In this document: piece after piece, positions 2,782 to 44,101 of the stretch | Numbering within the stretch: position 1 is the first letter of the stretch | Layout of the letters: every line of letters begins with the position of its first letter | Sequence record: NC_073316.1 | Direction: 5' to 3' (one strand) | DNA: 44,723 nt | Source of the DNA: Escherichia phage vB_EcoS_fFiEco02 | The notes under the pieces: model-generated | What the model was told of the DNA's origin: nothing | Seen by the model: the letters and a program-made list of their open reading frames with translations, nothing else | Database searches by the model: none | Translations under genes and position numbers: made by a program

Positions 2782-3858
2782 ATGCTATTAACTTTAGCGC
2801 CACAGGGTTTATCTATGAGCTTACTTACATCTCTAATCAGCCACCAGATATGGCTGCAACGCACTGCATCCGGTGAGGTGAAAGACCTCGCGCCGTTCAT
2901 TAAGGAGATGCGGGACGAAATAAAACGGCAGGTGCTGTTATTCGGTGACGACGGGCGGAGCACTGCGCGACTGAATAAACTGTTACTCGACCTTGAAGAA
3001 GCACTGACGGGGCTTACAGGTGACTGGCAAACAAAGCTGACAGAAGACCTTAAGGAACTGGCCGCATATGAGGCTGAGTGGAACGTAAAAACACTGACCG
3101 CCAACGTTGACGCGGAATTTGTTACGCCTACTGCCGAACAGGTGTGGGCTGCTGCCGAGTTTCAGCCGCTGTCGTTAAGCGACAAGCCCGTCGATTTCAC
3201 TAAGCTGATGGCAGGCTGGGGTGAAACGGAGGCCGCGCGCCTCGTAACCGGCGTTAAGATGGGGTTTGTTCAGGGCCAAACCACACGGCAGATTGTTAAA
3301 AATGTCGTAGGCGCTGGTGGGCTGGCGGACATCTCTGAACGCAACGCGGCTACGGTAATCCGCACCGCGCTGTCTCACGTATCCAACGAAGCCCGCAACG
3401 AGACATACCGCCAGAACGACGACATCATCGAGAAATACGAATGGGTGTCAACGCTGGACAGCCGTACCAGTACGATTTGCAGGGCCAGAGACGGGATGAC
3501 GTGGGAAATCGGTAAAGGTCCGATGCCCCCCGCCCATTTTGGATGTCGAAGTACCACTGCACCGGTAATCAGTTCGGAGTTCGACTTCCTAGATAAAGGT
3601 GCAAAACGCGCGGCTAAGGGTGCGGACGGCGGTATGCAGGTAAGCGCAGACACCACCTATTACGAGTTCCTGAAACAGCAACCGGCATGGTTCGTGGATG
3701 AAGCACTCGGACCTACCCGCGGTGCTATATTCAGGAATAGTGGGATACCCCCAGAGGAATTCCGGGTAATATCCGTCGACGCTTTTGGTAGACCTTTAAC
3801 CTTGAAGGAGATGGCGGCGTTAGATAACAGGGTTGCTGAATATCTTAGGTCGGTATAA
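2782..3858 (+). CDS. head morphogenesis protein (SPP1 gp7 / Mu F-like minor head protein)
   Basis: 358 aa; motif STICRARDG...PPAHFGCRS characteristic of the phage head morphogenesis domain; follows portal. Start may be the ATG at 2815. Confidence 0.75.
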   Translation: MLLTLAPQGLSMSLLTSLISHQIWLQRTASGEVKDLAPFIKEMRDEIKRQVLLFGDDGRSTARLNKLLLDLEEALTGLTGDWQTKLTEDLKELAAYEAEWNVKTLTANVDAEFVTPTAEQVWAAAEFQPLSLSDKPVDFTKLMAGWGETEAARLVTGVKMGFVQGQTTRQIVKNVVGAGGLADISERNAATVIRTALSHVSNEARNETYRQNDDIIEKYEWVSTLDSRTSTICRARDGMTWEIGKGPMPPAHFGCRSTTAPVISSEFDFLDKGAKRAAKGADGGMQVSADTTYYEFLKQQPAWFVDEALGPTRGAIFRNSGIPPEEFRVISVDAFGRPLTLKEMAALDNRVAEYLRSV

Positions 3859-3916: not shown

Positions 3917-3971
3917 CCCCATGAAGGTATGCCTATCTCTGGCATCGACCAATCTTCATGGGGTTTTCTTA
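3917..3971 (+). terminator. rho-independent terminator (long hairpin + T-tract)
   Basis: 10-bp stem ccccatgaag/cttcatgggg with internal atgcc/ggcat pairing, followed by ttttctta. Confidence 0.5.
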
Positions 3972-3982
3972 TAGGGTTTAAT

Positions 3983-4552
3983 ATGGGAATTGTTTTTGGT
4001 GTGGGTATTAACGATGTTTCACCAATAAGTTGCGGAGGGGTGCATATAGCGTCCTACGCCGTATGGAAGAACATGTTAAAGAGGTGCTACGACAAGAAAT
4101 GGCCGCAAAGAAACAGAACTTATATAGGTTGCCGCGTGTCGGACGATTGGTTGGTGTTCAGTAATTTCAAGGTCTGGTTTGATGATTTTTATGTACCTGG
4201 GTGGCAGATAGATAAGGATTTACTTAACCCGGGAAATAAGGTTTACGATGCTTCTAACTGTGTTTTCATCCCTAAATCCCTCAATACTTTCCTAACAGCC
4301 CACGACGCTCTTCGAGGCGAACACCCACTCGGCGTACATTTCCATAAACAAAAGAAAAGATTCATCGCTCAAGTATCCGTGGATGGCGTATCTGAACAAA
4401 TAGGTGCTTACGAAACCGCTCAAGAGGCACACGTAGCATGGTTTCATAGAAAAATTGAATTAGCATATGAATACAAAGGTCTTTGCGATAGCGTAGACCC
4501 ACGCCTTTTCGAAGGCGTCTTACGTAAGATTAACTCAATGAAAGAGGTTTAG
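3983..4552 (+). CDS. HNH-like homing endonuclease with C-terminal AP2-like DNA-binding domain (putative)
   Basis: paralog of 12934-13566 (shared CxDWLxFSNFxxW, GWxxDKDLL, CxFxPxxLNxFL, C-terminal G..F.....EA motif); track start 3929 lies inside the terminator hairpin so the ATG at 3983 is preferred. Confidence 0.55.
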   Translation: MGIVFGVGINDVSPISCGGVHIASYAVWKNMLKRCYDKKWPQRNRTYIGCRVSDDWLVFSNFKVWFDDFYVPGWQIDKDLLNPGNKVYDASNCVFIPKSLNTFLTAHDALRGEHPLGVHFHKQKKRFIAQVSVDGVSEQIGAYETAQEAHVAWFHRKIELAYEYKGLCDSVDPRLFEGVLRKINSMKEV

Positions 4553-4555
4553 TTT

Positions 4556-5014
4556 ATGGGCTTTTTCAAAGTAACTGATGTACCGTCGCGACGCGTAGTC
4601 CAGTACGCCCGCGTGTCTGGCTCTGGTGAGAACGTGGTATTTATTGAGGACGAAAGTGTACTGGGTACGCCGGTAGATGATATGCCGTTTGCGGATAAAA
4701 CCGGTATTGCACTTCCAGCGGCAGGTATGCTTTATGAGATTCCGTATCTGGCGGATGCTGGCGATGGGTATTTCTCTGTGCAACCGAAAGACACCGAGCT
4801 GGCCGACGGTAGCGCCACCATCACTGTCGAAGTTAAGGCGGGTAAAGCGCCGTATGTACTGACCTGGTACAAAGACGGGAAGGAAGTGGTGAACGCCCCG
4901 GAAGAGGCTCTGTCTCTGACTGTTAATGCGGCTGGTGAATACTTCGTTAAAGTTACTGATGCCGATGGTGCGGAGGCCGTAAGCAAAGCGGCGAAGGTCT
5001 CTAAACCAGGATGA
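4556..5014 (+). CDS. Ig-like domain protein (possible virion decoration/adhesin)
   Basis: C-terminal beta-rich segment TVEVKAGKAPYVLTWYKDGKEV...GEYFVKVTDADG resembles a bacterial Ig-like repeat; similar domain in 8714-9049. Confidence 0.45.
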   Translation: MGFFKVTDVPSRRVVQYARVSGSGENVVFIEDESVLGTPVDDMPFADKTGIALPAAGMLYEIPYLADAGDGYFSVQPKDTELADGSATITVEVKAGKAPYVLTWYKDGKEVVNAPEEALSLTVNAAGEYFVKVTDADGAEAVSKAAKVSKPG

Positions 5015-5018
5015 TAAA

Positions 5019-5048
5019 AGGCCCCATAATGGGGCCTTAGTTTTATTT
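5019..5048. terminator. bidirectional terminator between convergent genes
   Basis: hairpin aggcccca-taa-tggggcct followed by tagttttattt; A/T-rich on both sides. Confidence 0.55.
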
Positions 5049-5564
5049 AAATCGCGCAGGCATTAACACCATAAAGGCCGTGTTTGAAAATTGTATTTTG
5101 CATCCTCTGGTTTGGTCCTGGAAATCGAAACGAGCAATTTCATTTTTGTATGCCTTAGAAATCTTGTACGCGTCTGCCAAATAGCGCAGAGTGAACCCTA
5201 TACTGTCGACAACACCCGGTGTGATGTGCGCCACGCGTCTCCAGTCAGGAAAGTTTCCTTCTACAACATCTACCGGAAGTGTACATATAAGCGCACGATT
5301 ATCGTCATAGAAAGATACACTGCCGTTGTCGTGGTTTACCTCTGCGTAGTTAAATTTAGAAGGCTCTCTCCCTTTGATGTCTATGAGAGTCCCTTTCTCA
5401 ACGTTGGTCTTCACATTGTCGCAGAACAATCTATGACCGTCCGTAGACACTATCAATCCTTCAGGGTCTATGTAAAAAGCGTTCAAATAGTAGCGAACAT
5501 CATTTTTAGCCCTGCATATTTTCGCCCCTACATACGCAGGGAAAGTAATTACTGTAGTAACCAT
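5043..5564 (-). CDS. hypothetical protein (moron with own promoter)
   Basis: 173 aa ORF on the opposite strand to the structural genes, with SD aggaga and its own strong promoter; no recognisable motif. Confidence 0.55.
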   Translation of the reverse strand: MVTTVITFPAYVGAKICRAKNDVRYYLNAFYIDPEGLIVSTDGHRLFCDNVKTNVEKGTLIDIKGREPSKFNYAEVNHDNGSVSFYDDNRALICTLPVDVVEGNFPDWRRVAHITPGVVDSIGFTLRYLADAYKISKAYKNEIARFDFQDQTRGCKIQFSNTAFMVLMPARFK

Positions 5565-5591
5565 TTATCATCTCCTGTTTAAGTTAACCGA

Positions 5592-5620
5592 ATAGTACCC
5601 TATTATATTGGGGTGCGCAA
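5592..5620 (-). promoter_or_regulatory. sigma70-type promoter TTGCGC-N17-TACTAT with GAATAG-N4-CTATTC palindrome
   Basis: 26 bp identical to the promoter at 15561-15589; drives 5043-5564. Confidence 0.6.
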
Positions 5621-5686
5621 ACTATTTGTTTACGTATTCCAGTTATTCCACTCAATTGTAAACGTTGGAATAAACTATTCGAATAG

Positions 5687-5715
5687 TTGACTTTTCACTG
5701 AAAATATGATAAGCT
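5687..5715 (+). promoter_or_regulatory. promoter TTGACT-N17-TAAGCT of structured RNA A
   Basis: near-identical to 37525-37553 (TTGACTTTT.ACT.AAAATATG.TAAGCT); palindrome CTATTCGAATAG directly upstream. Confidence 0.5.
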
Positions 5716-5721
5716 CCACCT

Positions 5722-5918
5722 GAGCTTGTGAAGTATGAACAAGCGACCGCGGCGCGGGCAGGTAACGGAGCGGGACGTAAGTCCTGAGTGTAGTTACGCT
5801 GACGCGTTCGGAAGGGCCATACTCTATTGCTTGTGTAAAAAGTAACTGGTTTACTGAGATTACGCCGTTTCTATGTTTAAATGATAAGGACTAGCGCCCC
5901 GCTTTAAGGCGGGGCTTT
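5722..5918 (+). ncRNA. structured RNA element A (paralog of 37560-37794); candidate cis-acting antiterminator-like RNA or small RNA
   Basis: about 110 nt core conserved with copy B; stems GCTTGT/ACAAGC, CAG-GTAAC/GTTAC-g-CTG and GGAC-GTAA-GTCC show compensatory changes relative to B; ends at hairpin gccccgc-tttaag-gcggggc + ttt; the only ORF inside is not conserved in B. Confidence 0.5.
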
Positions 5919-5939
5919 ACTTATCGAGAAAGGGGAAAC

Positions 5940-6326
5940 ATGAATCTTAAAGCAACTGTCGTAGCGGGAGCATGTTTCATCATCCTGTTATATGCGCACG
6001 GCTACTATCAATACCGCAGCGGCTGGGGTGAAGGCCGTGCTAATCTCGTTTCGCAGCAACAGCAGAAAGCACAGGCTGAGCTGACGAAGAAAACACAACG
6101 GCAGCAGCAGGATGAATCAAAGGCCGCCGCTGCTGACAACGAAGGCAAGACGAAATCAGAGGTGATTACCCGTGAAGTCGTTAAGTACATTAAAACGCCT
6201 GGCCGCAGCGTGTGCACTTTCGACGATGCTCGCGTCCTGCTCAAGTCCCACGCCGTTGTCAACGCCAATTCCATCCCCGGATACGACGATGATGCAGCCG
6301 CCGTGCAAACTGGCACCGCCAAGTAG
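5940..6326 (+). CDS. i-spanin (Rz-like)
   Basis: 128 aa; N-terminal transmembrane segment (VVAGACFIILLYAHGYY), Q/K-rich coiled-coil region; contains the start of a +1-frame lipoprotein ORF. Confidence 0.65.
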   Translation: MNLKATVVAGACFIILLYAHGYYQYRSGWGEGRANLVSQQQQKAQAELTKKTQRQQQDESKAAAADNEGKTKSEVITREVVKYIKTPGRSVCTFDDARVLLKSHAVVNANSIPGYDDDAAAVQTGTAK

Positions 6327-6435
6327 CGACGCTGACGAGGATTTAGCTATCGACGTTCAGAACGCCGAATGTGTACGGCAACTGAGACTGAAAGTGTTCA
6401 TGTTGCAGGATTACGTGAGGAATATTCTGGAATAG
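6172..6435 (+). CDS. o-spanin (Rz1-like lipoprotein), overlapping Rz in +1 frame
   Basis: GTG start with SD gaggtga; signal peptide MKSLSTLKRLAAACALSTMLAS|C with lipobox LASC; Pro-rich mature part; starts inside 5940-6326 and extends 109 nt beyond it. Confidence 0.65.
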   Translation: MKSLSTLKRLAAACALSTMLASCSSPTPLSTPIPSPDTTMMQPPCKLAPPSSDADEDLAIDVQNAECVRQLRLKVFMLQDYVRNILE

Positions 6436-6517
6436 TTGCCTTGTATGTTGGAATAATTTATTCTTGACATGTAAATCCGGGAGGCCCGGATTCCAACGTC
6501 CAGGGGACATACTGACT

Positions 6518-7219
6518 ATGAATCGTTTTTTACACTATCCGTTCCAGGAAGAAGCTGGGGCAGAAGATAAATCTGGCGGTGGCGACGCTCCAAAAATGTT
6601 CACCGCTGAAGAAGTTCAGGCGATGATTGAGAAAGAAGTTGCCGGACTTAAGGCCAATCAGGAAGCATTGCTGGCGGAGAAGAAAGAAGCCGCCCGTAAA
6701 GCAAAAGAGGCCGAAGAGGAACGTCAGCGCGCGCACCAGGAGGCGCTAAAAGCCGCCGGTAAGATGGACGAGTTCGAAAAGACGATTCGTAGCCAGTATG
6801 ACCCGGTGTTAGCCGAGAAAGATGGTCGCATCACCAAAATGGCTGAGCGCATCCTCGGCAGCGAACGTAAAGCGGTGTTAGGCTCTTTCGCAGGTGATTT
6901 CATCACACCGGAAGCAGTAGACATTCTTGCTCCGTTCGTTAAGACTGAGTTTGAAGGCGATGACGTGGTTACTAAGTTTGTTGGTGCAGACGGCAACGTA
7001 ATCACAACTGACCCGGAACAGTTCCGCAAGTACCTGCGCGAACATAAAGCGTTTTCGCATTTGATTAAAGCAAATGCAGCTTCCGGCGGCGGGGCTTCCG
7101 GTGGCAAAGGCGGCGGGGCCGCACCAGCGTTTAAAGACATGAGTGAAGCGGAGCGTTTAGCTCTGTATAAATCGAACCCTGCCGAATTTGAACGGCAACT
7201 TAAAGCCCTGAGGAAATAA
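6518..7219 (+). CDS. scaffolding protein (putative)
   Basis: directly upstream of major capsid gene; charged, Ala/Glu/Lys-rich helical sequence; Gly-rich C-terminus. Confidence 0.55.
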   Translation: MNRFLHYPFQEEAGAEDKSGGGDAPKMFTAEEVQAMIEKEVAGLKANQEALLAEKKEAARKAKEAEEERQRAHQEALKAAGKMDEFEKTIRSQYDPVLAEKDGRITKMAERILGSERKAVLGSFAGDFITPEAVDILAPFVKTEFEGDDVVTKFVGADGNVITTDPEQFRKYLREHKAFSHLIKANAASGGGASGGKGGGAAPAFKDMSEAERLALYKSNPAEFERQLKALRK

Positions 7220-7221
7220 TA

Positions 7222-8271
7222 ATGGCAATTACCACTATCGGCGATATCGTAACTGGCAACATCCCGGTCCTGGCGTCTTATATGACCGAAGACCCGGTAG
7301 AAAAAACAGCGTTCTTCCAGTCCGGTATTCTGACCCCGACTCCGTACGCCGCTGAGATTGCCCGTGGCCCGTCCAACATCGCCAACATTCCTTTCTGGAA
7401 AGCGATTGATACTTCTATTGAGCCTAATTACTCGAACGACGTGTACCAGGACATCGCTACCCCGCGTAATGTGCAAACCGGTGAGATGATGGCCCGCGTT
7501 GCGTACCTGAACGAAGGTTTTGGTCAGGCTGATTTGACTGTCGAACTGACCAGCCAGAACCCGCTGCAATCCGTAGCATCCCGTCTGGGTAACTTCTGGC
7601 AACGCCAGGCGCAACGCCGTCTAATTGCTACCGCGCTCGGTCTGTACAACGACAACGTAGCCGCTACCGATGCTTACCACGAGAAGGATGACATGGTTAT
7701 CGACGTGTCTGCTACTATGGGCTTCGACGCAGGCGCATTCATCGACGCTACCCAGACTATGGGTGATGCGCTGATGGGCAACGGTGGCGAGGTGCTGGGC
7801 GCTATCGCGATGCACAGCTTCGTTTATGCGCAGGCGCGTAAGCAGCAGCTTATCGACTTCATCAAAGATGCCGACAACGACACCTTGTTCGCCACCTACC
7901 AGGGCTACCGTGTGATTGTTGACGACAGCATGACCGTAGTTGGTACTGGCGATAGCCGTAAGTTCATTTCTATCATCTTCGGCAACGGTGCTATCGGTTA
8001 CGGTGAAGGCAATCCGTCCAACCCGCTGGAATACGAACGCGAAGCGTCTCGCGGTAACGGTGGCGGCGTCGAAACCCTGTGGACTCGTAAGGCCTGGCTG
8101 CTGCACCCGTTTGGTTACAGCTTCACCAGCGCGGTAATCACTGGCAACGGCACCGAGACTGTCGCACGTTCTGCCTCCTGGCAGGACCTGGCGAACGCCT
8201 CCAACTGGAACCGTGTTGTTGATCGTAAGCATGTACCGATTGCATTTCTGGTAACTGGTGTCGGTGCTTAA
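7222..8271 (+). CDS. major capsid protein (putative)
   Basis: 349 aa ORF after scaffold, followed by a strong terminator; position and size typical of HK97-fold capsid protein. Confidence 0.7.
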   Translation: MAITTIGDIVTGNIPVLASYMTEDPVEKTAFFQSGILTPTPYAAEIARGPSNIANIPFWKAIDTSIEPNYSNDVYQDIATPRNVQTGEMMARVAYLNEGFGQADLTVELTSQNPLQSVASRLGNFWQRQAQRRLIATALGLYNDNVAATDAYHEKDDMVIDVSATMGFDAGAFIDATQTMGDALMGNGGEVLGAIAMHSFVYAQARKQQLIDFIKDADNDTLFATYQGYRVIVDDSMTVVGTGDSRKFISIIFGNGAIGYGEGNPSNPLEYEREASRGNGGGVETLWTRKAWLLHPFGYSFTSAVITGNGTETVARSASWQDLANASNWNRVVDRKHVPIAFLVTGVGA

Positions 8272-8286
8272 GGTTAATATATAATC

Positions 8287-8311
8287 GAGAGGGACTTCGG
8301 TCCCTCTTTTC
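8287..8311 (+). terminator. rho-independent terminator after capsid gene
   Basis: hairpin gagagggac-ttcg-gtccctct followed by tttt. Confidence 0.6.
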
Positions 8312-9085: not shown

Positions 9086-9265
9086 ATGGCAGATAATTAT
9101 GTAATCCGCGAAAAATACACCCACGTTGATGTTGTTGACGGTCAGGTGATACCAGTTCGCGGTGTTGTAGAAGCGGACGATCTGGTTGCAACCCAACCGG
9201 ACAGCGAAGAAGCGCACAACAACGGCGGCGGTACTAAGCGTCGTCGCCGTAAGTCAGAGGAATAA
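9086..9265 (+). CDS. small hypothetical protein (59 aa)
   Basis: ORF below the track cutoff; SD aaggaaagg upstream; basic C-terminus. Confidence 0.3.
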   Translation: MADNYVIREKYTHVDVVDGQVIPVRGVVEADDLVATQPDSEEAHNNGGGTKRRRRKSEE

Positions 9266-9268
9266 TTT

Positions 9269-9781
9269 ATGCCGCTAATCGTGGAAACGGGAGAAATCGT
9301 ACCTGGCGCTGACAGTTACATTAGTCTGGCTGACGCCCGCGCGTTAGCGGCTAATTATGGTCTGGAGCTACCCGCAGACGATACCGCAGCAGAGGTGGCC
9401 TTGCGCAACGGTGCTACTTATGTCGGGCTTGCAGAACCGCAGATGTGCGGGCGACGCGTATACGCCGAACAGTCTCTTGCGTACCCACGCACCGGTGTTA
9501 CGCTAAATGGCTTCCCTGTAGCAAACAATGTCATCCCGAAGCAGGTGATTCTTGCGCAGGTAATCGCCGCTGCTACATATGGCGCGGGTACGGAAGTGCG
9601 GGCCAACTCGGACGGTCGCGCAGTACAGACCGAGCGTGTCGAGGGTGCGGTAACAGTGACCTACTTCAACAACGGCAGCAGTGGGGCTACAACCGCGATT
9701 ACCGCCGCCGACGACGCCTTACGTCCGTTACTGTGCGGTGGTCTTAACAATGGCTTCTCGTTTAATGTGTACCGGGGTTAA
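9269..9781 (+). CDS. head-tail connector/adaptor protein (putative)
   Basis: 170 aa; position between head and tail genes. Confidence 0.4.
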   Translation: MPLIVETGEIVPGADSYISLADARALAANYGLELPADDTAAEVALRNGATYVGLAEPQMCGRRVYAEQSLAYPRTGVTLNGFPVANNVIPKQVILAQVIAAATYGAGTEVRANSDGRAVQTERVEGAVTVTYFNNGSSGATTAITAADDALRPLLCGGLNNGFSFNVYRG

Positions 9782-37524: not shown

Positions 37525-37553
37525 TTGACTTTTACTTAAAAATATGCTAAGCT
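37525..37553 (+). promoter_or_regulatory. promoter TTGACT-N17-TAAGCT of structured RNA B
   Basis: paralog of 5687-5715. Confidence 0.5.
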
Positions 37554-37559
37554 TCACTG

Positions 37560-37794
37560 AGCTTGTGAGATATCGCAAGCGACCGCGGAGCGGCAGGGAA
37601 CGCAACGCGTGCCATTAGGCACTTGAGTGTAGTTCCGCTGGCGCTTTCGGAAGGGCCAAAGTCTATTGTTAATCCCGCCTAAATACCCAAGTCACTGATA
37701 ATTAAAAGTTTATATAGTTGCCGTAAGCAAGGTAGAGAGTACTTCACTCCGCTGGGGTGGGCTAACGCCCACCCACTGCGTTGCGTACTCTTTT
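37560..37794 (+). ncRNA. structured RNA element B (paralog of 5722-5918)
   Basis: conserved core; stems GCTTG/CAAGC, CAG-GGAAC/GTTCC-g-CTG, GTGCC-ATTA-GGCAC; ends in a long hairpin + tctttt. Confidence 0.5.
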
Positions 37795-37862: not shown

Positions 37863-37896
37863 TCACTTATCGAAACGAGACAGATGAGTGAGGGTT

Positions 37897-38085
37897 ATGT
37901 TTAGGAAGGGTCAGTTGGTTAAAGCCGTAGATTATTATTATAGTATTGTTGAAACAGAGTCTGTCGTTTTTCCCGGAACTTATAGGGTGCGTTTTCTCGT
38001 GAAAAGATTAGGTGCGGTAGATTGGTTCCGGGAAGACGAGCTAACACTCATCGGCAACAATTTTAAATTCAAAGGGGCGAAGTGA
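37897..38085 (+). CDS. hypothetical early protein
   Basis: 62 aa from the ATG at 37897. Confidence 0.4.
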   Translation: MFRKGQLVKAVDYYYSIVETESVVFPGTYRVRFLVKRLGAVDWFREDELTLIGNNFKFKGAK

Positions 38086-38321
38086 TGCAAATCATAATTA
38101 CAGATAACACCGTTACCTGTGAAACGGCTAACGATACTCTGGAGAGCATAGGCGTAAATATCGGTGATGTTTTCGATGTACTGGATTCCTGTAACGGTGG
38201 CTGGTGGATTAAGACGGGAAGATACACAATCCCGGTAACTAAGGCCGAAGCGCAAATATACACAACGGCATCGAATCATGATGCTCGCGCCGACGACTCT
38301 GAGGGAGGTTGCCGTAAATGA
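38085..38321 (+). CDS. hypothetical early protein (paralog family with 38654-38845)
   Basis: shared segment IGVNIGDVFDVLDS vs FGVAVGDVFEVVEA. Confidence 0.45.
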   Translation: MQIIITDNTVTCETANDTLESIGVNIGDVFDVLDSCNGGWWIKTGRYTIPVTKAEAQIYTTASNHDARADDSEGGCRK

Positions 38322-38593
38322 ATAACACTGAACTGAAAACAGTAGCGGAATATAACCATAAAATACGTGTCATGCGTCGGGGTGCCGGGCTGGAGCAGTT
38401 TTATAACATGCGGCGCACTGCGACGCGCGACCCCGAGTTTCCGCGAACAGGTTATTATTTCACTGAAGGCATTATTCCGATTCGTGCCCGCAAGGATTAC
38501 GGTTGGGTGCGCGAGACACCTAATCTTATGTGGTGCTGGTATTGTGGTGAGTTCTGGGTGCACGTTAAAGAGAAGATGGTGGGTTATGAATAA
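38318..38593 (+). CDS. hypothetical early protein
   Basis: 91 aa, ATGA-type overlap with the upstream gene. Confidence 0.4.
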   Translation: MNNTELKTVAEYNHKIRVMRRGAGLEQFYNMRRTATRDPEFPRTGYYFTEGIIPIRARKDYGWVRETPNLMWCWYCGEFWVHVKEKMVGYE

Positions 38594-38653
38594 TTACCCG
38601 TTTATTTTAATCGTCAGCGCCGTTTATGAGGCGCACGCGTTGTGGGGGCTGGT

Positions 38654-38845
38654 ATGAGAATTCGAATAACAAAGGTAAACAGTTTTCAACCCGCACCCTA
38701 TGACGACCATCCGCTCTACCATTTCGGCGTGGCTGTCGGTGATGTGTTCGAGGTTGTGGAAGCGCATGGGTACGGGTTTATAGTCGAAACTGATGATGGA
38801 CCGCTATTCATTAGACGCAGTGAGTGCGAAGTTCTGGAGGACTAA
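38654..38845 (+). CDS. hypothetical early protein
   Basis: 63 aa from the ATG at 38654. Confidence 0.4.
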   Translation: MRIRITKVNSFQPAPYDDHPLYHFGVAVGDVFEVVEAHGYGFIVETDDGPLFIRRSECEVLED

Positions 38846-38848
38846 TTT

Positions 38849-38992
38849 ATGAGAGAAGCATTTGAACGGTGGGCCGTCGTCGAGGGTCTGCCGGTTAACA
38901 AGGGTTCAAAGAAAGAGTACCTGAACGTTAAGACGCGTCTCGCGTGGCGGGCGTGGAAAGCTGGTGTGTTGTCTGTTGTGAATCCGAGGTGA
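38849..38992 (+). CDS. hypothetical small protein (47 aa)
   Basis: below track cutoff; tightly packed between neighbours. Confidence 0.3.
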   Translation: MREAFERWAVVEGLPVNKGSKKEYLNVKTRLAWRAWKAGVLSVVNPR

Positions 38993-38995
38993 GAT

Positions 38996-39187
38996 ATGGG
39001 TAAGTGGATTAAGTGTAGTGAGCGGATGCCGGAAAAGCTTGATGATGTGCTGGTTACTGATGGCGAGCATGTCGAGGTTAAATGGTGGAACGGTCGTATT
39101 TGGGATTGTTGGGCACCGCGTAACTCAGATATTAGTTACAAAGATGTAACTCACTGGATGCCGTTACCCGAGCCGCCGGAAGTGTGA
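38996..39187 (+). CDS. small protein resembling DUF551-type phage proteins
   Basis: C-terminal THWMPLPEPPEV, Trp-rich. Confidence 0.4.
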   Translation: MGKWIKCSERMPEKLDDVLVTDGEHVEVKWWNGRIWDCWAPRNSDISYKDVTHWMPLPEPPEV

Positions 39188-39229
39188 TGTTATATTGTAA
39201 CAATAGTTTGGGATTTTACTGAGTGACTT

Positions 39230-39258
39230 ACGCTGCTACACCGCAGCGTATCATTTTT
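39230..39258 (+). terminator. rho-independent terminator
   Basis: hairpin acgctgc-tacacc-gcagcgt + atcattttt. Confidence 0.55.
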
Positions 39259-39343
39259 CTCATTTTTGTTCTATTTCACCAAACGCAACAATCGAAGCGA
39301 CTATTGCAGGAGATGCAACGATACAAACACCAATAAAATTTAC

Positions 39344-39372
39344 TTGCACACTGGGATAGAATAGGCTACTAT
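39344..39372 (+). promoter_or_regulatory. early promoter TTGCAC-N17-TACTAT with GAATAG-N4-CTATTC palindrome
   Basis: palindrome 39359-39374; leader contains ACGAGAGGAGAG. Confidence 0.6.
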
Positions 39373-39403
39373 TCATTTACACGAACGAGAGGAGAGACGG
39401 AAT

Positions 39404-39592
39404 ATGAGTAACAAAAACGAGCATTTGATTAAAGTTACCCCAGTATGGTCGGCGTGGGTTATTGCCTCTGATGGGGAGCACGTACCAAAATTCGTGTTCA
39501 CTGATGAGAAAGTTGCGCGTGAGTGGCTTCGCGCCGGCAAGAAAGGTGAACGCGGCATCATGAAGGTTGGGCTTGTAGGAGACGTATTATGA
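39404..39592 (+). CDS. hypothetical early protein
   Basis: 62 aa; starts MSNKNE with the same 17 nt as the next gene. Confidence 0.45.
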   Translation: MSNKNEHLIKVTPVWSAWVIASDGEHVPKFVFTDEKVAREWLRAGKKGERGIMKVGLVGDVL

Positions 39593-40239
39593 GTAACAAA
39601 AACGAAGTATTCGAGTACCTGATTGACCAGTTACGGCGGCAGCTACCGGTCGTAGATGTTATGGGTGAGATTGAACGGTGGAGTATCGACCGTAGTATCG
39701 CGGGTCGCGGTAACTATACCGACGAGGAAAACGCCATAATCGATGCTTACATCGGCCTGGAGCACAACCCGTACAAGCAACAGTGCGAAGGCCTGGCCCA
39801 TGAAGTGCTGTCACTTAAGAATCAGTTACGTGATGCGTCGGCGCTGGTGGCTGAGTTACAGAAAGAACTTGATATCGCCAATAGCACCGTCGTTCGTTTG
39901 CGTAAAGAGATAGCTAAGTCTACCGGTGACATTGGAGAATACATCGATGCCATGGAGCAATCCGGTTGCTGCAAAGAAGATACTCAGTACAACGCCTGGA
40001 GGCCGCATTATGGTGCGCGACAACCTGTGCCGGATGGGACTATGGTATTTATCCGGTATCGCAACGGGGAGGAGCCGAAACACAGTGTAGCAGCAGAAAA
40101 GCGGTCGTGGATTTGGGATGGAACATACGCAGACATAGTGGAATACAAGATTGACACACAGGAATGTGAACATGACTATCGTTTGGTTCTGTGGTGTAAC
40201 GACTTACAGCAGTGCTCTAAATGCGGGGTGATCAAATGA
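39589..40239 (+). CDS. hypothetical early protein (coiled-coil N-terminal, Cys/Trp-rich C-terminal)
   Basis: 216 aa; ATGA overlap with the upstream gene. Confidence 0.5.
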   Translation: MSNKNEVFEYLIDQLRRQLPVVDVMGEIERWSIDRSIAGRGNYTDEENAIIDAYIGLEHNPYKQQCEGLAHEVLSLKNQLRDASALVAELQKELDIANSTVVRLRKEIAKSTGDIGEYIDAMEQSGCCKEDTQYNAWRPHYGARQPVPDGTMVFIRYRNGEEPKHSVAAEKRSWIWDGTYADIVEYKIDTQECEHDYRLVLWCNDLQQCSKCGVIK

Positions 40240-40499
40240 CCAGCATCTTATTTATCTGGGTATTGTCCGCAGGCCAGATGCAACTAGCGGCATCAGAAAC
40301 GTTTTATTCGATGGAGGCGTGCCAGTCAGCGGCACGCGCCGCAGAGAACGCGCACTTTCTGTTTCAGGGTGACAAGCCCAACGACTCAGAGGTACGCGCC
40401 GCAGAGAACGCGCACTTTCTGTTTCAGGGTGACAAGCCCAACGACTCAGAGGTACGCGCTATCTGCTCGCCTAAGCGACTTGGTAAACAGGAGAAGTGA
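40236..40499 (+). CDS. small protein with N-terminal hydrophobic segment and internal 20-aa tandem duplication
   Basis: MTSILFIWVLSAGQMQLAAS…; AAENAHFLFQGDKPNDSEVR repeated twice. Confidence 0.45.
   Translation: MTSILFIWVLSAGQMQLAASETFYSMEACQSAARAAENAHFLFQGDKPNDSEVRAAENAHFLFQGDKPNDSEVRAICSPKRLGKQEK
40334..40453 (+). repeat. perfect 60-bp tandem duplication (2 copies, plus 7-bp partial third)
   Basis: acgcgccgcagagaacgcgcactttctgtttcagggtgacaagcccaacgactcagaggt repeated head-to-tail. Confidence 0.9.
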
Positions 40500-40501
40500 T
40501 T

Positions 40502-40705
40502 ATGGTACAGAGATACTCTAAGTATGGGTCTGACAACCATTTCGGGGACCGTCACGGGGCGTGGGTTAAGTTTGAGGACTACCAGAATCTTGACCACAAG
40601 CTGTTGGAAGTTGAAGCCGAGTTACAGAAATACAAAGACCAGTTCCCTGATTACGTAGAGTGCGCGAACTGTGGGTCAGTTACACATTTGGAAGGGGTGG
40701 AGTGA
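40502..40705 (+). CDS. hypothetical early protein (MVQRY paralog 1)
   Basis: 68 aa; SD aggaga. Confidence 0.45.
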   Translation: MVQRYSKYGSDNHFGDRHGAWVKFEDYQNLDHKLLEVEAELQKYKDQFPDYVECANCGSVTHLEGVE

Positions 40706-40899
40706 TGGTACAGAGGTATGAGGTGGAAAAATGGGGCCTGCCAGAGCCTGAGATGGCTGAGTACGCATACGGCGATTATGTAGAATACGACGCTTATCTT
40801 AAACTGGAAGCAAAGTTACGTGAATTCGCTGAACAGGTAATGTACGAACCTTGTTCGAAAGTTACAGAAGAAATGGCCCGCGAGATTCTCGGAATATGA
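40705..40899 (+). CDS. hypothetical early protein (MVQRY paralog 2)
   Basis: 64 aa; same N-terminus MVQRY and similar helical YxxYLKLE pattern. Confidence 0.45.
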   Translation: MVQRYEVEKWGLPEPEMAEYAYGDYVEYDAYLKLEAKLREFAEQVMYEPCSKVTEEMAREILGI

Positions 40900-41189
40900 G
40901 CCTTGCAACTGACATCCTGAAACGAAGCGGCCTTGCGCCGCTGTCGCCGAGAGCGAATACACGAATACACAAGCGCCGCCGTAACGCGCTGTTCCCTGAG
41001 ATACAAGAACGGCGCAAAGCCATCCGCGCCTGCGGATTCCAGAGCGGGAAGGCCGTTAATCTAGGCGAGTTTAAGACGAAGGAACGCGCAGCAATCGCTA
41101 ATCGGTTATTTAATTACTGGAAATCGCTGGGATATGATGATATTCCGACGAAACCGCAGAGACGACAATACATCTGGAGACATAAATAA
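40896..41189 (+). CDS. hypothetical basic protein
   Basis: 97 aa from the ATG at 40896 (ATGA overlap); Arg/Lys-rich. Confidence 0.4.
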   Translation: MSLATDILKRSGLAPLSPRANTRIHKRRRNALFPEIQERRKAIRACGFQSGKAVNLGEFKTKERAAIANRLFNYWKSLGYDDIPTKPQRRQYIWRHK

Positions 41190-41219
41190 ACCGTTATTAA
41201 GATAATTCCTACCCGTGGT

Positions 41220-41259
41220 ATCCTCCAGTTACTGCATACTTAATACGCACCTGGAGGAT
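41220..41259 (+). promoter_or_regulatory. stem-loop sequestering the holin ribosome-binding site
   Basis: 9-bp stem atcctccag/ctggaggat; SD ggagga lies in the 3' arm, 6 nt upstream of the TTG start. Confidence 0.4.
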
Positions 41260-41264
41260 TCATC

Positions 41265-41573
41265 TTGGATAAATTTACCGAAACAGTGACGGGGTGGCTT
41301 CTCGCTGCCGCACTAGCCGGAGGGGTAATTGGACTACGACAGCATAAGTCCGTTATTTCTGACCCTATCGACGGCTTCTGCTTTATCGCAACTGGCTTCA
41401 CTTGCGCCGTGTTTGGCGCACCTCTTGCCGCCCAATGGTTTGGCATTACCGGTGAGCGTGAGATAGCTGGCCTCGGATTCATCATTGCCATTCTCTGGAT
41501 ACCCATCTATTCCCGCCTATCCGGTATCGTCGCCGGAGAATACATCGCACGTCGAGGAGGCACAGATGAATGA
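41265..41573 (+). CDS. holin (putative, three transmembrane segments, TTG start)
   Basis: 102 aa with three hydrophobic segments; no in-frame ATG/Met; immediately upstream of second membrane protein and endolysin. Confidence 0.5.
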   Translation: MDKFTETVTGWLLAAALAGGVIGLRQHKSVISDPIDGFCFIATGFTCAVFGAPLAAQWFGITGEREIAGLGFIIAILWIPIYSRLSGIVAGEYIARRGGTDE

Positions 41574-41838
41574 GTTATTCTGGTTCGGTGGTATGCTGGC
41601 AATCGGAGGCGCATCGCTGTTTAATGTGTATCACCCCCGCGTGGACGACGGACTATTTGGCCGGGTGCTCTATATCCTGACAGCTATCGTCTGCGCAGCC
41701 GGGTGTATCCACCTGTTACAGGGCAGCATGTCGCCAACGCTGCCCGAGACGTTAATCACATTAGTTGCGCTGCGCCAGATTCGCCAGGCGTGGCTGTCAT
41801 ACGGAGGACATAAGCGTGTCTCGAAACATTTCAGATAA
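41566..41838 (+). CDS. second small membrane protein (holin/antiholin candidate)
   Basis: 90 aa from the ATG at 41566 with SD gaggagg; two hydrophobic segments. Confidence 0.45.
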   Translation: MNELFWFGGMLAIGGASLFNVYHPRVDDGLFGRVLYILTAIVCAAGCIHLLQGSMSPTLPETLITLVALRQIRQAWLSYGGHKRVSKHFR

Positions 41839-42304
41839 TGGATTGCATTTTACCGCTGCGTTCGAGGGGTTCCGTGGAACTGCATATCGTGCTACGCCGA
41901 ATGAGAAGTACCTGACTATTGGGTACGGTCACTATGGGCCGGACGTAACACCAGGTAAGACCATCACCCCTGGCCAAGGCCTCCTGTTACTGAATCGCGA
42001 TATGGCTAAGGCCGTAGCTGCGGTTGATGCAGCAGCACACCATTCGCTGACACAGGCGCAGTTCGACGCCGTGTGTGACCTGGTCTATAACGCCGGTGCA
42101 GGTGTGGTTGCAGCTACTACTGGCACGGGTAAGGCGCTGCGTTCCGGTGATGTCGCGACGCTACGGGCTAAACTGGCGCTGTTTATCAACCAGAACGGCA
42201 AACCGCTACTCGGCTTGCGTCGCCGTACTGCGGGCCGTCTGGCCCTGTTCGACGGCAAACCGTGGCAGGAGGCAGAGGCTATCGGGCGCGCGGTGAAAGG
42301 TTGA
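41816..42304 (+). CDS. endolysin, T4-lysozyme-like (GH24) muramidase
   Basis: motif EGFRGTAYRATPNEKYLTIGYGH matches the E-G-x-R…Y…T-I-G-x-G-H catalytic region; GTG start with SD ggagga overlapping the upstream gene. Confidence 0.8.
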   Translation: MSRNISDNGLHFTAAFEGFRGTAYRATPNEKYLTIGYGHYGPDVTPGKTITPGQGLLLLNRDMAKAVAAVDAAAHHSLTQAQFDAVCDLVYNAGAGVVAATTGTGKALRSGDVATLRAKLALFINQNGKPLLGLRRRTAGRLALFDGKPWQEAEAIGRAVKG

Positions 42305-42370
42305 CACCTGAGACTAATCCGACGATACTTAAATCACCTCCTGTTCCATCCCTCTGCTCTCCAGTTTTAT

Positions 42371-42401
42371 CCCGGCCCTGACCCAGCCGGGATTTTTTTT
42401 T
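42371..42401 (+). terminator. strong rho-independent terminator after the lysis cassette
   Basis: hairpin cccggc-cctgaccca-gccggg followed by nine T. Confidence 0.7.
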
Positions 42402-44062: not shown

Positions 44063-44086
44063 CAAGCCCTCTACGGAGGGCTTTTC
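44063..44086 (+). terminator. rho-independent terminator closing the early region
   Basis: hairpin agccctc-tacg-gagggct + tttt. Confidence 0.6.
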
Positions 44087-44101
44087 TGTACATCCCGCCC
44101 A

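Follow-up and report, generated by a model that had tools for sequence, protein, structure and literature searches.

Two overlapping genes lie at 5940–6435 on the plus strand of the window, i.e., the whole 44,723-nucleotide stretch of DNA that was analyzed. The upstream gene is referred to as the i-spanin gene and the downstream gene as the o-spanin gene. They are preceded by a putative promoter, a structured leader RNA, and a GC-rich hairpin, and followed by the scaffold gene. The holin and endolysin genes lie near the other end of the window. The features are listed in Table 1.

Table 1. Position and description of the features around the spanin pair, the second leader copy, and the holin–endolysin genes.
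Feature	Position	Strand	Description
Head-morphogenesis gene	2782–3858		
Intervening gene	3929–4552		between head morphogenesis and spanins
Decoration gene	4556–5014		between head morphogenesis and spanins
Terminator-like hairpin	5018–5038		on the endolysin-to-spanin path
Clamp-like gene	5043–5564	−	between head morphogenesis and spanins
GGAATA/TATTCC half-site cluster	5643–5684		includes inverted repeat GGAATA-N3-TATTC at 5667–5680; just upstream of promoter P1
Promoter-like site P1 (putative)	5687–5715	+	TTGACT, 17 nt, TGa-TAAGCT (extended −10)
Structured leader RNA (RNA element A)	5724–5815	+	P0 hairpin, then irregular hairpin P1-P1b-P2-P3 (5747–5811), tail GGAAGGGCC
GC-rich hairpin, terminator-like	5896–5915	+	weak U tract (CUUUACUUAUC); 25 nt upstream of i-spanin ATG; −17.2 kcal/mol
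i-spanin ribosome-binding site	5930–5936	+	AAGGGGA
i-spanin gene	5940–6326	+	128 aa; N-terminal TM anchor at about residues 5–21, from ORF and hydropathy
o-spanin ribosome-binding site	6159–6164	+	GAGGTG
Doubly read region	6172–6326	+	155 bp; i-spanin C-terminus and o-spanin signal peptide/linker
o-spanin gene	6172–6435	+	87 aa; GTG start; Pro-rich linker
Hairpin	6474–6492	+	AAUCCGGG-AGG-CCCGGAUU; between o-spanin stop and scaffold start
Scaffold gene start	6518		downstream of o-spanin stop
Copy B	37525–37654	+	promoter P1 and leader RNA paralogue; heads gene run 37888–42304, which ends with holin–endolysin
Terminator-like site	39229–39250		inside gene run 37888–42304
Weak promoter-like site	41177–41206		inside gene run 37888–42304
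Holin/antiholin-type membrane protein	41265–41573	+	first cassette gene; PHROG 2359 'holin', 1.3e-28
Second holin/antiholin-type membrane protein	41566–41838	+	PHROG 2508 'holin', 6.6e-33
GH24 endolysin	41816–42304	+	GTG start; Pfam PF00959 Phage_lysozyme, 6.3e-27
Strong intrinsic terminator	42369–42401	+	8-bp GC-rich stem, 9-nt loop, U9; on the endolysin-to-spanin path
Terminator-like hairpin	44065–44088		on the endolysin-to-spanin path

Position 1 of the window is the ATG of the large terminase gene (TerL). The TerS ORF from 44182 runs past the last base and stops within an ATGA that it shares with the TerL start at position 1. Since the TerS ORF reads across the ends into this overlap, the window ends are contiguous and the genome is complete. 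By sequence comparison and end continuity, the window was identified as the whole genome of a Kagunavirus (Jersey-like coliphage, Guernseyvirinae). In a megablast search, 5500–7300 matched 482 GenBank phage records, and the best matches were Escherichia phages fPoEco01 (97.9%), Ivi, Snoke, and Schulenburg. The top relatives were all Guernseyvirinae, mostly Kagunavirus by classification. Schulenburg (also spelled Schulenberg; MK931438), Snoke, Ivi, fBC-Eco01, and Golestan were the Kagunavirus genomes used for comparison. Schulenburg and other Kagunavirus genomes share the gene order and have 97–98% nucleotide identity over 5500–7300 (Schulenburg, 97%). The spanin residues show few differences from fPoEco01, Snoke, and Ivi, and an i-spanin and an o-spanin are annotated at the same spot in the curated records of Snoke, Ivi, and others.

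The N-terminus of the i-spanin was hydrophobic, with a Kyte–Doolittle 19-residue maximum of 1.76 at residue 1 and a 17-residue maximum of 2.06. No second hydrophobic segment was found by Kyte–Doolittle analysis of the whole protein beyond the first ~21 residues. This hydropathy profile, a single N-terminal TM anchor with the remainder periplasmic, is a hallmark of spanins, and the N-in/C-out topology is recorded by TMHMM for the Snoke homologue. The protein has two poly-Q runs (QQQQ at 39–42 and QQQ at 55–57) and a single periplasmic cysteine, Cys92. It matched PHROG 2536 'Rz-like spanin' (2e-54), and DUF2514 was the only Pfam match, at a sub-threshold score. The Rz-like i-spanin with an N-terminal TM helix at 5940, as proposed in the original prediction, is supported by both the hydropathy and PHROG 2536. 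In tblastn, the i-spanin matched 544 phage records, 506 of them with at least 80% protein coverage. It was 90.6% identical to the K1ind1 homologue; the pairwise identity with SETP3 was 60%, and the spanin identities with SETP3-type phages ranged from 60 to 66%. A single-sequence AlphaFold2 model of the i-spanin placed helices at 3–84 and 94–103 with modest confidence (mean pLDDT 60.8). The model is consistent with a membrane anchor and a helical periplasmic domain, and stops short of proving the coiled coil of the original prediction.

The o-spanin gene is in the +1 frame relative to the i-spanin gene, since (6172 − 5940) mod 3 = 1. The signal peptide MKSLSTLKRLAAACALSTMLAS ends directly before Cys23 of the lipobox LASC, and the mature protein starts with CSSPTPL, with Ser24 at +2. 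The lipobox is preceded by K2, K8, R9, and a hydrophobic core, and the sequence passed a PROSITE-style lipobox rule. The 87-aa product carries the outer-membrane lipoprotein signal expected of a spanin, i.e., a lipobox Cys with no Asp at +2. The 65-residue mature protein contains nine prolines and two further cysteines, Cys45 and Cys67. Together with Cys92 of the i-spanin, these provide periplasmic cysteines on both partners, at positions kept in relatives. The o-spanin matched PHROG 5672 (4.6e-30) and PHROG 1267 (4.9e-18), both labelled 'Rz-like spanin'; no Pfam match was found for this protein. Its pairwise identity with SETP3 was 64%, and the lipoprotein signal was retained in seven relatives despite varying sequence. 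The Pro-rich, +1-frame Rz1-like lipoprotein of the original prediction was confirmed by the canonical signal with Cys23, the nine prolines, and the two PHROG families.

The two genes share 155 bp in the +1 frame, an overlap that is itself characteristic of spanins, and the o-spanin gene extends 109 bp beyond the i-spanin stop. Selection on both frames was estimated from pairwise Nei–Gojobori counts, with ER23, SETP3, and Shelanagig as the Jerseyvirus set. The dN/dS of the non-overlapped i-spanin codons was 0.15–0.25 against these three relatives and Serratia Smarc3, and 0.52 against Pantoea AH01. The dN/dS of the o-spanin over the 35 codons beyond the i-spanin stop was 0.07 against the Jerseyvirus set; in this part, dS was saturated for the two more distant phages tested. 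Within the overlap, the i-spanin frame (0.21–0.43) was more constrained than the o-spanin frame (0.6–1.4). Both frames are real genes, because the dN/dS data show purifying selection.

Many records omit the +1 ORF or give a truncated 48-aa version (Schulenburg, ER23), as would be expected if the frame were open by chance and the 128-aa protein alone were real. This explanation is refuted by the conservation data and retains practically no probability. The non-overlapped o-spanin codons are under the strong constraint given above, and every relative checked had the +1 frame open and carrying a lipobox, including some with only ~50% protein identity. A lipobox scan of the whole genome by the PROSITE-style rule, covering six frames and every start codon, gave 15 hits, several of which were alternative starts of one ORF. 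Only two of the 15 also had an RBS-like motif: the 6172 ORF and 38484–38657. The latter is far from the endolysin and is without family or conservation support, which leaves the 6172 ORF as the sole one with both. Gene callers have a documented bias that leaves overlapped o-spanins under-annotated (PMC6139136).

Truncated or missing o-spanins are common in deposited records, e.g., the 48-aa version in Schulenburg (6882–7028) and in ER23. The Schulenburg version is without the signal peptide, while the annotation of Snoke and Ivi agrees with the 87-aa GTG-start protein. The correct reading of the o-spanin is the full 87-aa GTG-start version.

The holin, the second membrane protein, and the GH24 endolysin had been placed at 41265–42304, and the PHROG and Pfam matches agreed with this assignment. 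The product of 41265–41573 has two TM-like segments by the hydropathy threshold, and its Schulenburg homologue is predicted to have three TM domains. The ATG of 41566–41838 overlaps the preceding stop (ATGAATGA), and its product has a TM-like segment at residues 29–55. The endolysin is soluble; hydropathy analysis found no hydrophobic segment and no N-terminal signal-anchor in it. The three genes end an uninterrupted plus-strand gene run, 37888–42304. The strong terminator predicted behind the endolysin was also found: the hairpin 42369–42393 with U9 folds at −13.8 kcal/mol. It was missed by the terminator scan because its 9-nt loop exceeds the 8-nt limit of the scan, and was read by eye and then folded.

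A lambda-type contiguous cassette, with spanins directly after the endolysin in the same operon, is absent; the endolysin is followed by the terminator and then by small soluble ORFs. No TM-like segment or lipobox was found in the eight small downstream ORFs tested. No credible second spanin was found by the six-frame lipobox scan and the hydropathy of small ORFs around the endolysin, in line with the original prediction, which depended on no separate spanin being adjacent to the endolysin. A unimolecular spanin of the T1 gp11 type was also considered. The o-spanin has no further hydrophobic segment after the signal peptide (maximum Kyte–Doolittle value 1.06), and no ORF in the genome combined both features of this type in the lipobox scan and the hydropathy of small ORFs.

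On the circular map only, going clockwise over the window ends, the i-spanin ATG lies 8,358 nt beyond the endolysin stop; within the linear window the two are 34.8 kb apart. The predicted distance of about 8 kb between the spanins and the cassette holds across the window ends and fails inside the window. Along the endolysin-to-spanin path, every gene but one is on the plus strand. The spanins belong to a different transcription unit from holin–endolysin, as predicted, because at least three terminator-like hairpins (42369–42401, 44065–44088, and 5018–5038) intervene. The order of head morphogenesis, spanins, and scaffold was predicted correctly, but the pair does not adjoin the head-morphogenesis gene: three further genes (3929–4552, 4556–5014, and 5043–5564) intervene. 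The flanks of the spanin pair are both hot spots of variable cargo on the minus strand. This cargo is the clamp-like gene in the window, methylases in ER23 and dunkel, and unrelated small genes in AH01, TS6, Shemara, and SECphi18; SETP3 has none.

The location inside the head module would be explained if the membrane protein and the lipoprotein had a non-lysis role, e.g., in superinfection exclusion or as a head-assembly accessory. Neither protein has a Pfam domain above threshold, and spanin function in the family is derived from homology and signals, which would leave room for such a role. However, the single N-terminal anchor, the lipoprotein signal, the gene overlap, and the periplasmic cysteines of two-component spanins are present, and the family is catalogued as spanins (PMC6139136). 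The genome has no other spanin candidate, despite a Gram-negative host and a standard holin–endolysin pair. In addition, in the lambdoid Klebsiella phage 2b LV-2017, an i-spanin of 38.5% identity, overlapped by a lipoprotein ORF of its own, occupies the canonical place, directly after 'lysis S family protein' and 'lysozyme' and downstream of a Q-like antiterminator gene. The Klebsiella pair shows that the family is linked to lysis and that either location is possible. A non-lysis role is therefore highly improbable. The products of 5940–6326 and 6172–6435, encoded by a Kagunavirus, very probably form a two-component spanin of conventional type that belongs to the published 'Jersey' family, with a lysis function predicted from homology and targeting signals.

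The 'Jersey' spanin family comprises 27 phages, including K1G, K1H, and K1ind1-3 (Kongari et al. 2018, PMC6139136). Its traits are overlapped genes (155-bp overlap in Jersey), two poly-Q runs in the i-spanin, and invariant cysteines at o-spanin positions 45 and 67 (PMC6139136). For the periplasmic part of the i-spanin, the same paper predicts two helices and, in the linker between them, two beta strands. The overlap, the poly-Q runs, and the cysteines of the family (Jersey, SETP3, SE2, K1G, K1H, K1ind1-3, and HK578-like phages) are all present in the window. In these phages the pair likewise lies ahead of the scaffold gene, and no substantive difference from the pair of the window was found. 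The pre-scaffold position was kept in every relative inspected: the Jerseyvirus phages SETP3, ER23, L223, CTH7, dunkel, and Shelanagig, the Cornellvirus-type phages Shemara and TS6, and also Serratia Smarc3, Pantoea AH01, and SECphi18. The spanin overlap is only 8 bp in the Cornellvirus-type phages and AH01.

The layout of the seemingly unrelated Dhillonvirus (HK578-like) SECphi18 is similar. Its two holin genes and the endolysin gene lie at 5068–6078; the terminase, portal, and head-morphogenesis genes come next, then the spanin pair and the scaffold gene, whose start is preceded by the hairpin also found in the window. The i-spanin identity is low, at 51% in a local match of 37 residues. Unlike in the window, the Dhillonvirus i-spanin gene begins within the last part of the head-morphogenesis gene, without a promoter or leader RNA in front. 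The split between spanins and holin–endolysin is common to Guernseyvirinae and Dhillonvirus, and is thus old and stable. In the Schulenberg paper, the holin/antiholin and endolysin genes are described as genetically separate from the overlapping spanins (PMC6763661). The same separation is implicit in fBC-Eco01 (spanins gp11/12; holins and endolysin gp68-70) and Golestan (spanins ORF7/8; holins and endolysin ORF66-68). Both the spanin family and its separation from holin–endolysin are therefore already published, and the layout is ordinary.

Compared with lambda Rz/Rz1, the pair has the same components, a type II inner-membrane protein and a +1-frame outer-membrane lipoprotein, with periplasmic Cys, a Pro-rich o-spanin, and presumably the same mechanism (PMC6139136). 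However, Rz1 is wholly embedded in Rz, whereas the o-spanin gene of the window runs 109 bp past the i-spanin stop. Rz/Rz1 closes the S-R-Rz cassette behind pR'-tR', whereas the pair of the window is in the head module. No sequence similarity was detectable between lambda Rz and the i-spanin, whose best Pfam match is the sub-threshold DUF2514. T4 PseT.3/PseT.2 resembles the window in that the spanin genes are remote from the holin and endolysin genes (PMC6139136). The T4 spanin genes are separated and non-overlapping, and its holin and endolysin genes are themselves unlinked, whereas holin, antiholin, and endolysin lie together in the window.

The transcription signals around the spanin pair were investigated. 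Promoter P1 was absent from the output of the consensus scan, presumably because its −10 hexamer matches only three of six positions, and was read by eye. SETP3-type phages have a counterpart at the same place, TAGACT-17-TGt-TACGCT. The GGAATA/TATTCC cluster upstream of P1 is conserved in Jerseyvirus and is operator-like, i.e., a candidate operator. Its inverted repeat GGAATA-N3-TATTC occurs again at 6450–6463, ahead of the scaffold gene. A search for this pattern gave three sites (six strand-wise matches) vs 0.61 matches expected. In SETP3-type phages, a C-G pair of the hairpin 5896–5915 is replaced by G-C, a compensatory change, and the tail is poorer in U; the hairpin could halt part of the transcripts ahead of the spanins. 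The hairpin 6474–6492 is not a terminator, because it is without a U tract. Its core CCGGGWGGCCCGG is kept across Guernseyvirinae, and has a compensated end pair in Dhillonvirus SECphi18. No terminator was found between 6435 and 6518, and the next one downstream of the spanins is 8287–8308, after the capsid gene. A Jerseyvirus or Kagunavirus transcriptome was not found in the literature. From these signals, the spanin genes would be the first cistrons of a late scaffold–capsid transcript.

The leader RNA contains a long irregular hairpin of ~65 nt and a conserved tail GGAAGGGCC. No Rfam match was found for the whole window at the gathering threshold or for 5600–6560 at E ≤ 10, where the best noise hits scored 16 bits vs cut-offs of 42–75. 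Each of 12 distinct core variants folded separately into one architecture (P1, P1b, P2, and P3), with widely differing apical stems. One pair of helix P1 was U-A, C-G, or A-U in all 15 sequences. Consensus folding of MAFFT alignments with RNAalifold found helix P1 alone, as the inner stems vary too much to be aligned correctly. In total, 71 occurrences were obtained from a pattern search of IMG/VR plus the previously identified loci, and 51 of them end 111–124 nt before the start of an i-spanin homologue. Eight occurrences lie ahead of the first copy-B operon gene, 10 have neither homologue downstream and have cores of copy-B type, and two have too little flanking DNA to judge. In Jerseyvirus and Kagunavirus, the spacing between the leader RNA and the i-spanin gene downstream of it is fixed, which bears out the prediction that the pair is directly downstream of RNA element A. 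A 36-aa ORF at 5735–5845, annotated in Snoke and Schulenburg, was rejected as a gene, because its start, frame, and most of its sequence are not conserved in SETP3-type phages. The only conserved stretch is the part over the conserved RNA core.

The spanin pair could instead be its own short unit, with the leader and hairpin 5896–5915 acting as an attenuator or antitermination target, and the scaffold and capsid genes transcribed from a separate regulator-dependent start near 6464. This would fit the occurrence of GGAATA-N3-TATTC with a TTGAC(T/A) hexamer both before the leader (5667–5692) and before the scaffold gene (6450–6469). It would also fit a conserved structured leader at a fixed distance from the i-spanin start, and a hairpin conserved with a compensatory change. 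However, the site before the scaffold gene is without an acceptable −10 hexamer (CGGATT), the conserved hairpin fills its spacer, and no terminator follows the o-spanin gene. The spanin genes of Dhillonvirus and Serratia Smarc3 follow head genes with little or no gap and without such a leader. No Q-like or other antiterminator was recognized by PHROGs and Pfam among the ten small plus-strand ORFs at 39.6–44.0 kb, which gave only families of unknown function and a weak NinH match. A separate spanin unit is considered unlikely. In the preferred arrangement, a sigma-70-like promoter at 5687–5715 would drive a transcript with the structured leader, the leaky hairpin, the i-spanin, o-spanin, scaffold, and major capsid genes, ending at the terminator 8287–8308, and the spanins would be expressed alongside the late head genes.

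A second copy of the leader RNA (copy B), with the same promoter, is present in Kagunavirus, while SETP3 has copy A only. Copy B is 79% identical to copy A over 146 nt; its P3 apical stem is wholly replaced and still paired. One RNA element at the head of both holin–endolysin and spanins does not hold as a general rule: at the B position, SETP3 carries a different leader. The leader RNA might act in cis, like HK022 put or the lambda nut/pR'-tR' leaders, and cause RNA polymerase to read through 5896–5915, 8287–8308, and 39229–39250, so that one RNA-based device switches on both lysis halves and the head genes. This idea is speculative and rather improbable.

By analogy with the lambda and T4 spanins, a mechanism can be proposed. 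The N-terminal helix of the i-spanin would lie in the inner membrane, with its mostly helical periplasmic domain directed outward. After export and lipidation at Cys23, the o-spanin would be directed to the inner leaflet of the outer membrane, as its +2 residue is Ser and not Asp. The C-terminal domains of both proteins would bind, probably stabilized by disulfides via Cys92, Cys45, and Cys67, and the complexes would cross the periplasm through the peptidoglycan mesh. They would remain inert until the holin releases the GH24 endolysin. After degradation of the wall, the spanins would disrupt the outer membrane, probably by fusion with the inner membrane. Spanins would be harmless before wall degradation, and therefore tight linkage to holin–endolysin would be unneeded.

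The practical value of the analysis is in annotation, since many Guernseyvirinae records call one or both spanin genes 'hypothetical' or shorten the o-spanin. Beyond the published descriptions, the results add the age and stability of the split layout and the position of the spanins as the first genes behind a conserved leader RNA. The feature that deserves more work is the leader RNA, rather than the spanins. If the cis-acting role of the leader were true, a single RNA-based switch would control the head genes together with both parts of the divided lysis system.

A promoter followed by a structured leader RNA was found twice in the window, as two paralogous copies. The leader consisted of a P0 hairpin, an irregular hairpin of about 65 nt (P1-P1b-P2-P3) and the tail GGAAGGGCC. 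No match to the leader was found in Rfam, and covariation supports the predicted fold. Copy A was located 111–124 nt upstream of the i-spanin gene in all 51 cases. Copy B was at the head of the operon ending with holin-endolysin; it was found in Kagunavirus and was absent from SETP3.

Features of the window and of phage SECphi18
Feature	Position	Strand	Remarks
Promoter + structured leader RNA, copy A	5687–5815		Paralogous to copy B
Promoter + structured leader RNA, copy B	37525–37654		Paralogous to copy A
Inverted repeat GGAATA-N3-TATTC	5643–5684		Extra GGAATA/TATTCC half-sites; immediately 5' of the spanin leader promoter
Inverted repeat GGAATA-N3-TATTC	6450–6463		Immediately 5' of the scaffold gene
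Inverted repeat GGAATA-N3-TATTC	9259–9272		One mismatch; overlaps the start of ORF 9269–9781
Hairpin, core CCGGG-WGG-CCCGG	6474–6492		About 25 nt 5' of the scaffold start codon
Counterpart hairpin, SECphi18	about 4140–4160		
ORF, 207 aa	3929–4552		Between head-morphogenesis and decoration genes
Clamp-like gene, 173 aa	5043–5564	−	PHROG 3007 and 947; weak Pfam DNA_pol3_beta_2
Tandem repeat, 60-bp unit × 2.2	40326–40459		97% match; within ORF 40221–40499

The annotation of the o-spanin differed between public records. It was cut to the C-terminal 48 aa, without a signal peptide, in Schulenburg (6882–7028) and was missing from the ER23 record; in its place, the L223 and CTH7 records gave short ORFs labelled "hypothetical". 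The full-length lipoprotein frame, with a GTG or ATG start, was open in every one of these records checked.

The clamp-like gene lay midway through the head module on the opposite strand, and its product was related to sliding-clamp and processivity-factor families, although the bacterial beta clamp is more than twice as long. Since other Guernseyvirinae had methylases or small, unrelated genes in this slot, which was empty in SETP3, it acts as a cargo hot spot. The 207-aa ORF, inserted between the head-morphogenesis and decoration genes, had no Pfam match at E ≤ 0.01. The head-morphogenesis gene adjoined the decoration gene directly in Ivi and SETP3; the equivalent slot was occupied by an HNH endonuclease in Schulenburg, and Snoke had an intein inside the morphogenesis gene instead. 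The 207-aa ORF is probably a free-standing homing endonuclease.

As a result of the tandem repeat, 20 residues (AAENAHFLFQGDKPNDSEVR) were duplicated; the protein concerned was small, belonged to PHROG 3766 and had a hydrophobic N-terminus.

The core of the hairpin before the scaffold gene was nearly unchanged throughout Guernseyvirinae, and the RBS region TCCAGGGGACAT 3' of it was likewise conserved. Dhillonvirus retained the hairpin (GCGGG...CCCGC), with a compensatory change at the end pair. It could be an element of RNA processing, stability or translation or, at the DNA level, a palindrome recognised by a protein. The GGAATA-N3-TATTC repeat occurred at three sites in the window (six strand-wise matches, against 0.61 matches expected), and it looks like an operator for a putative dimeric regulator of late genes.
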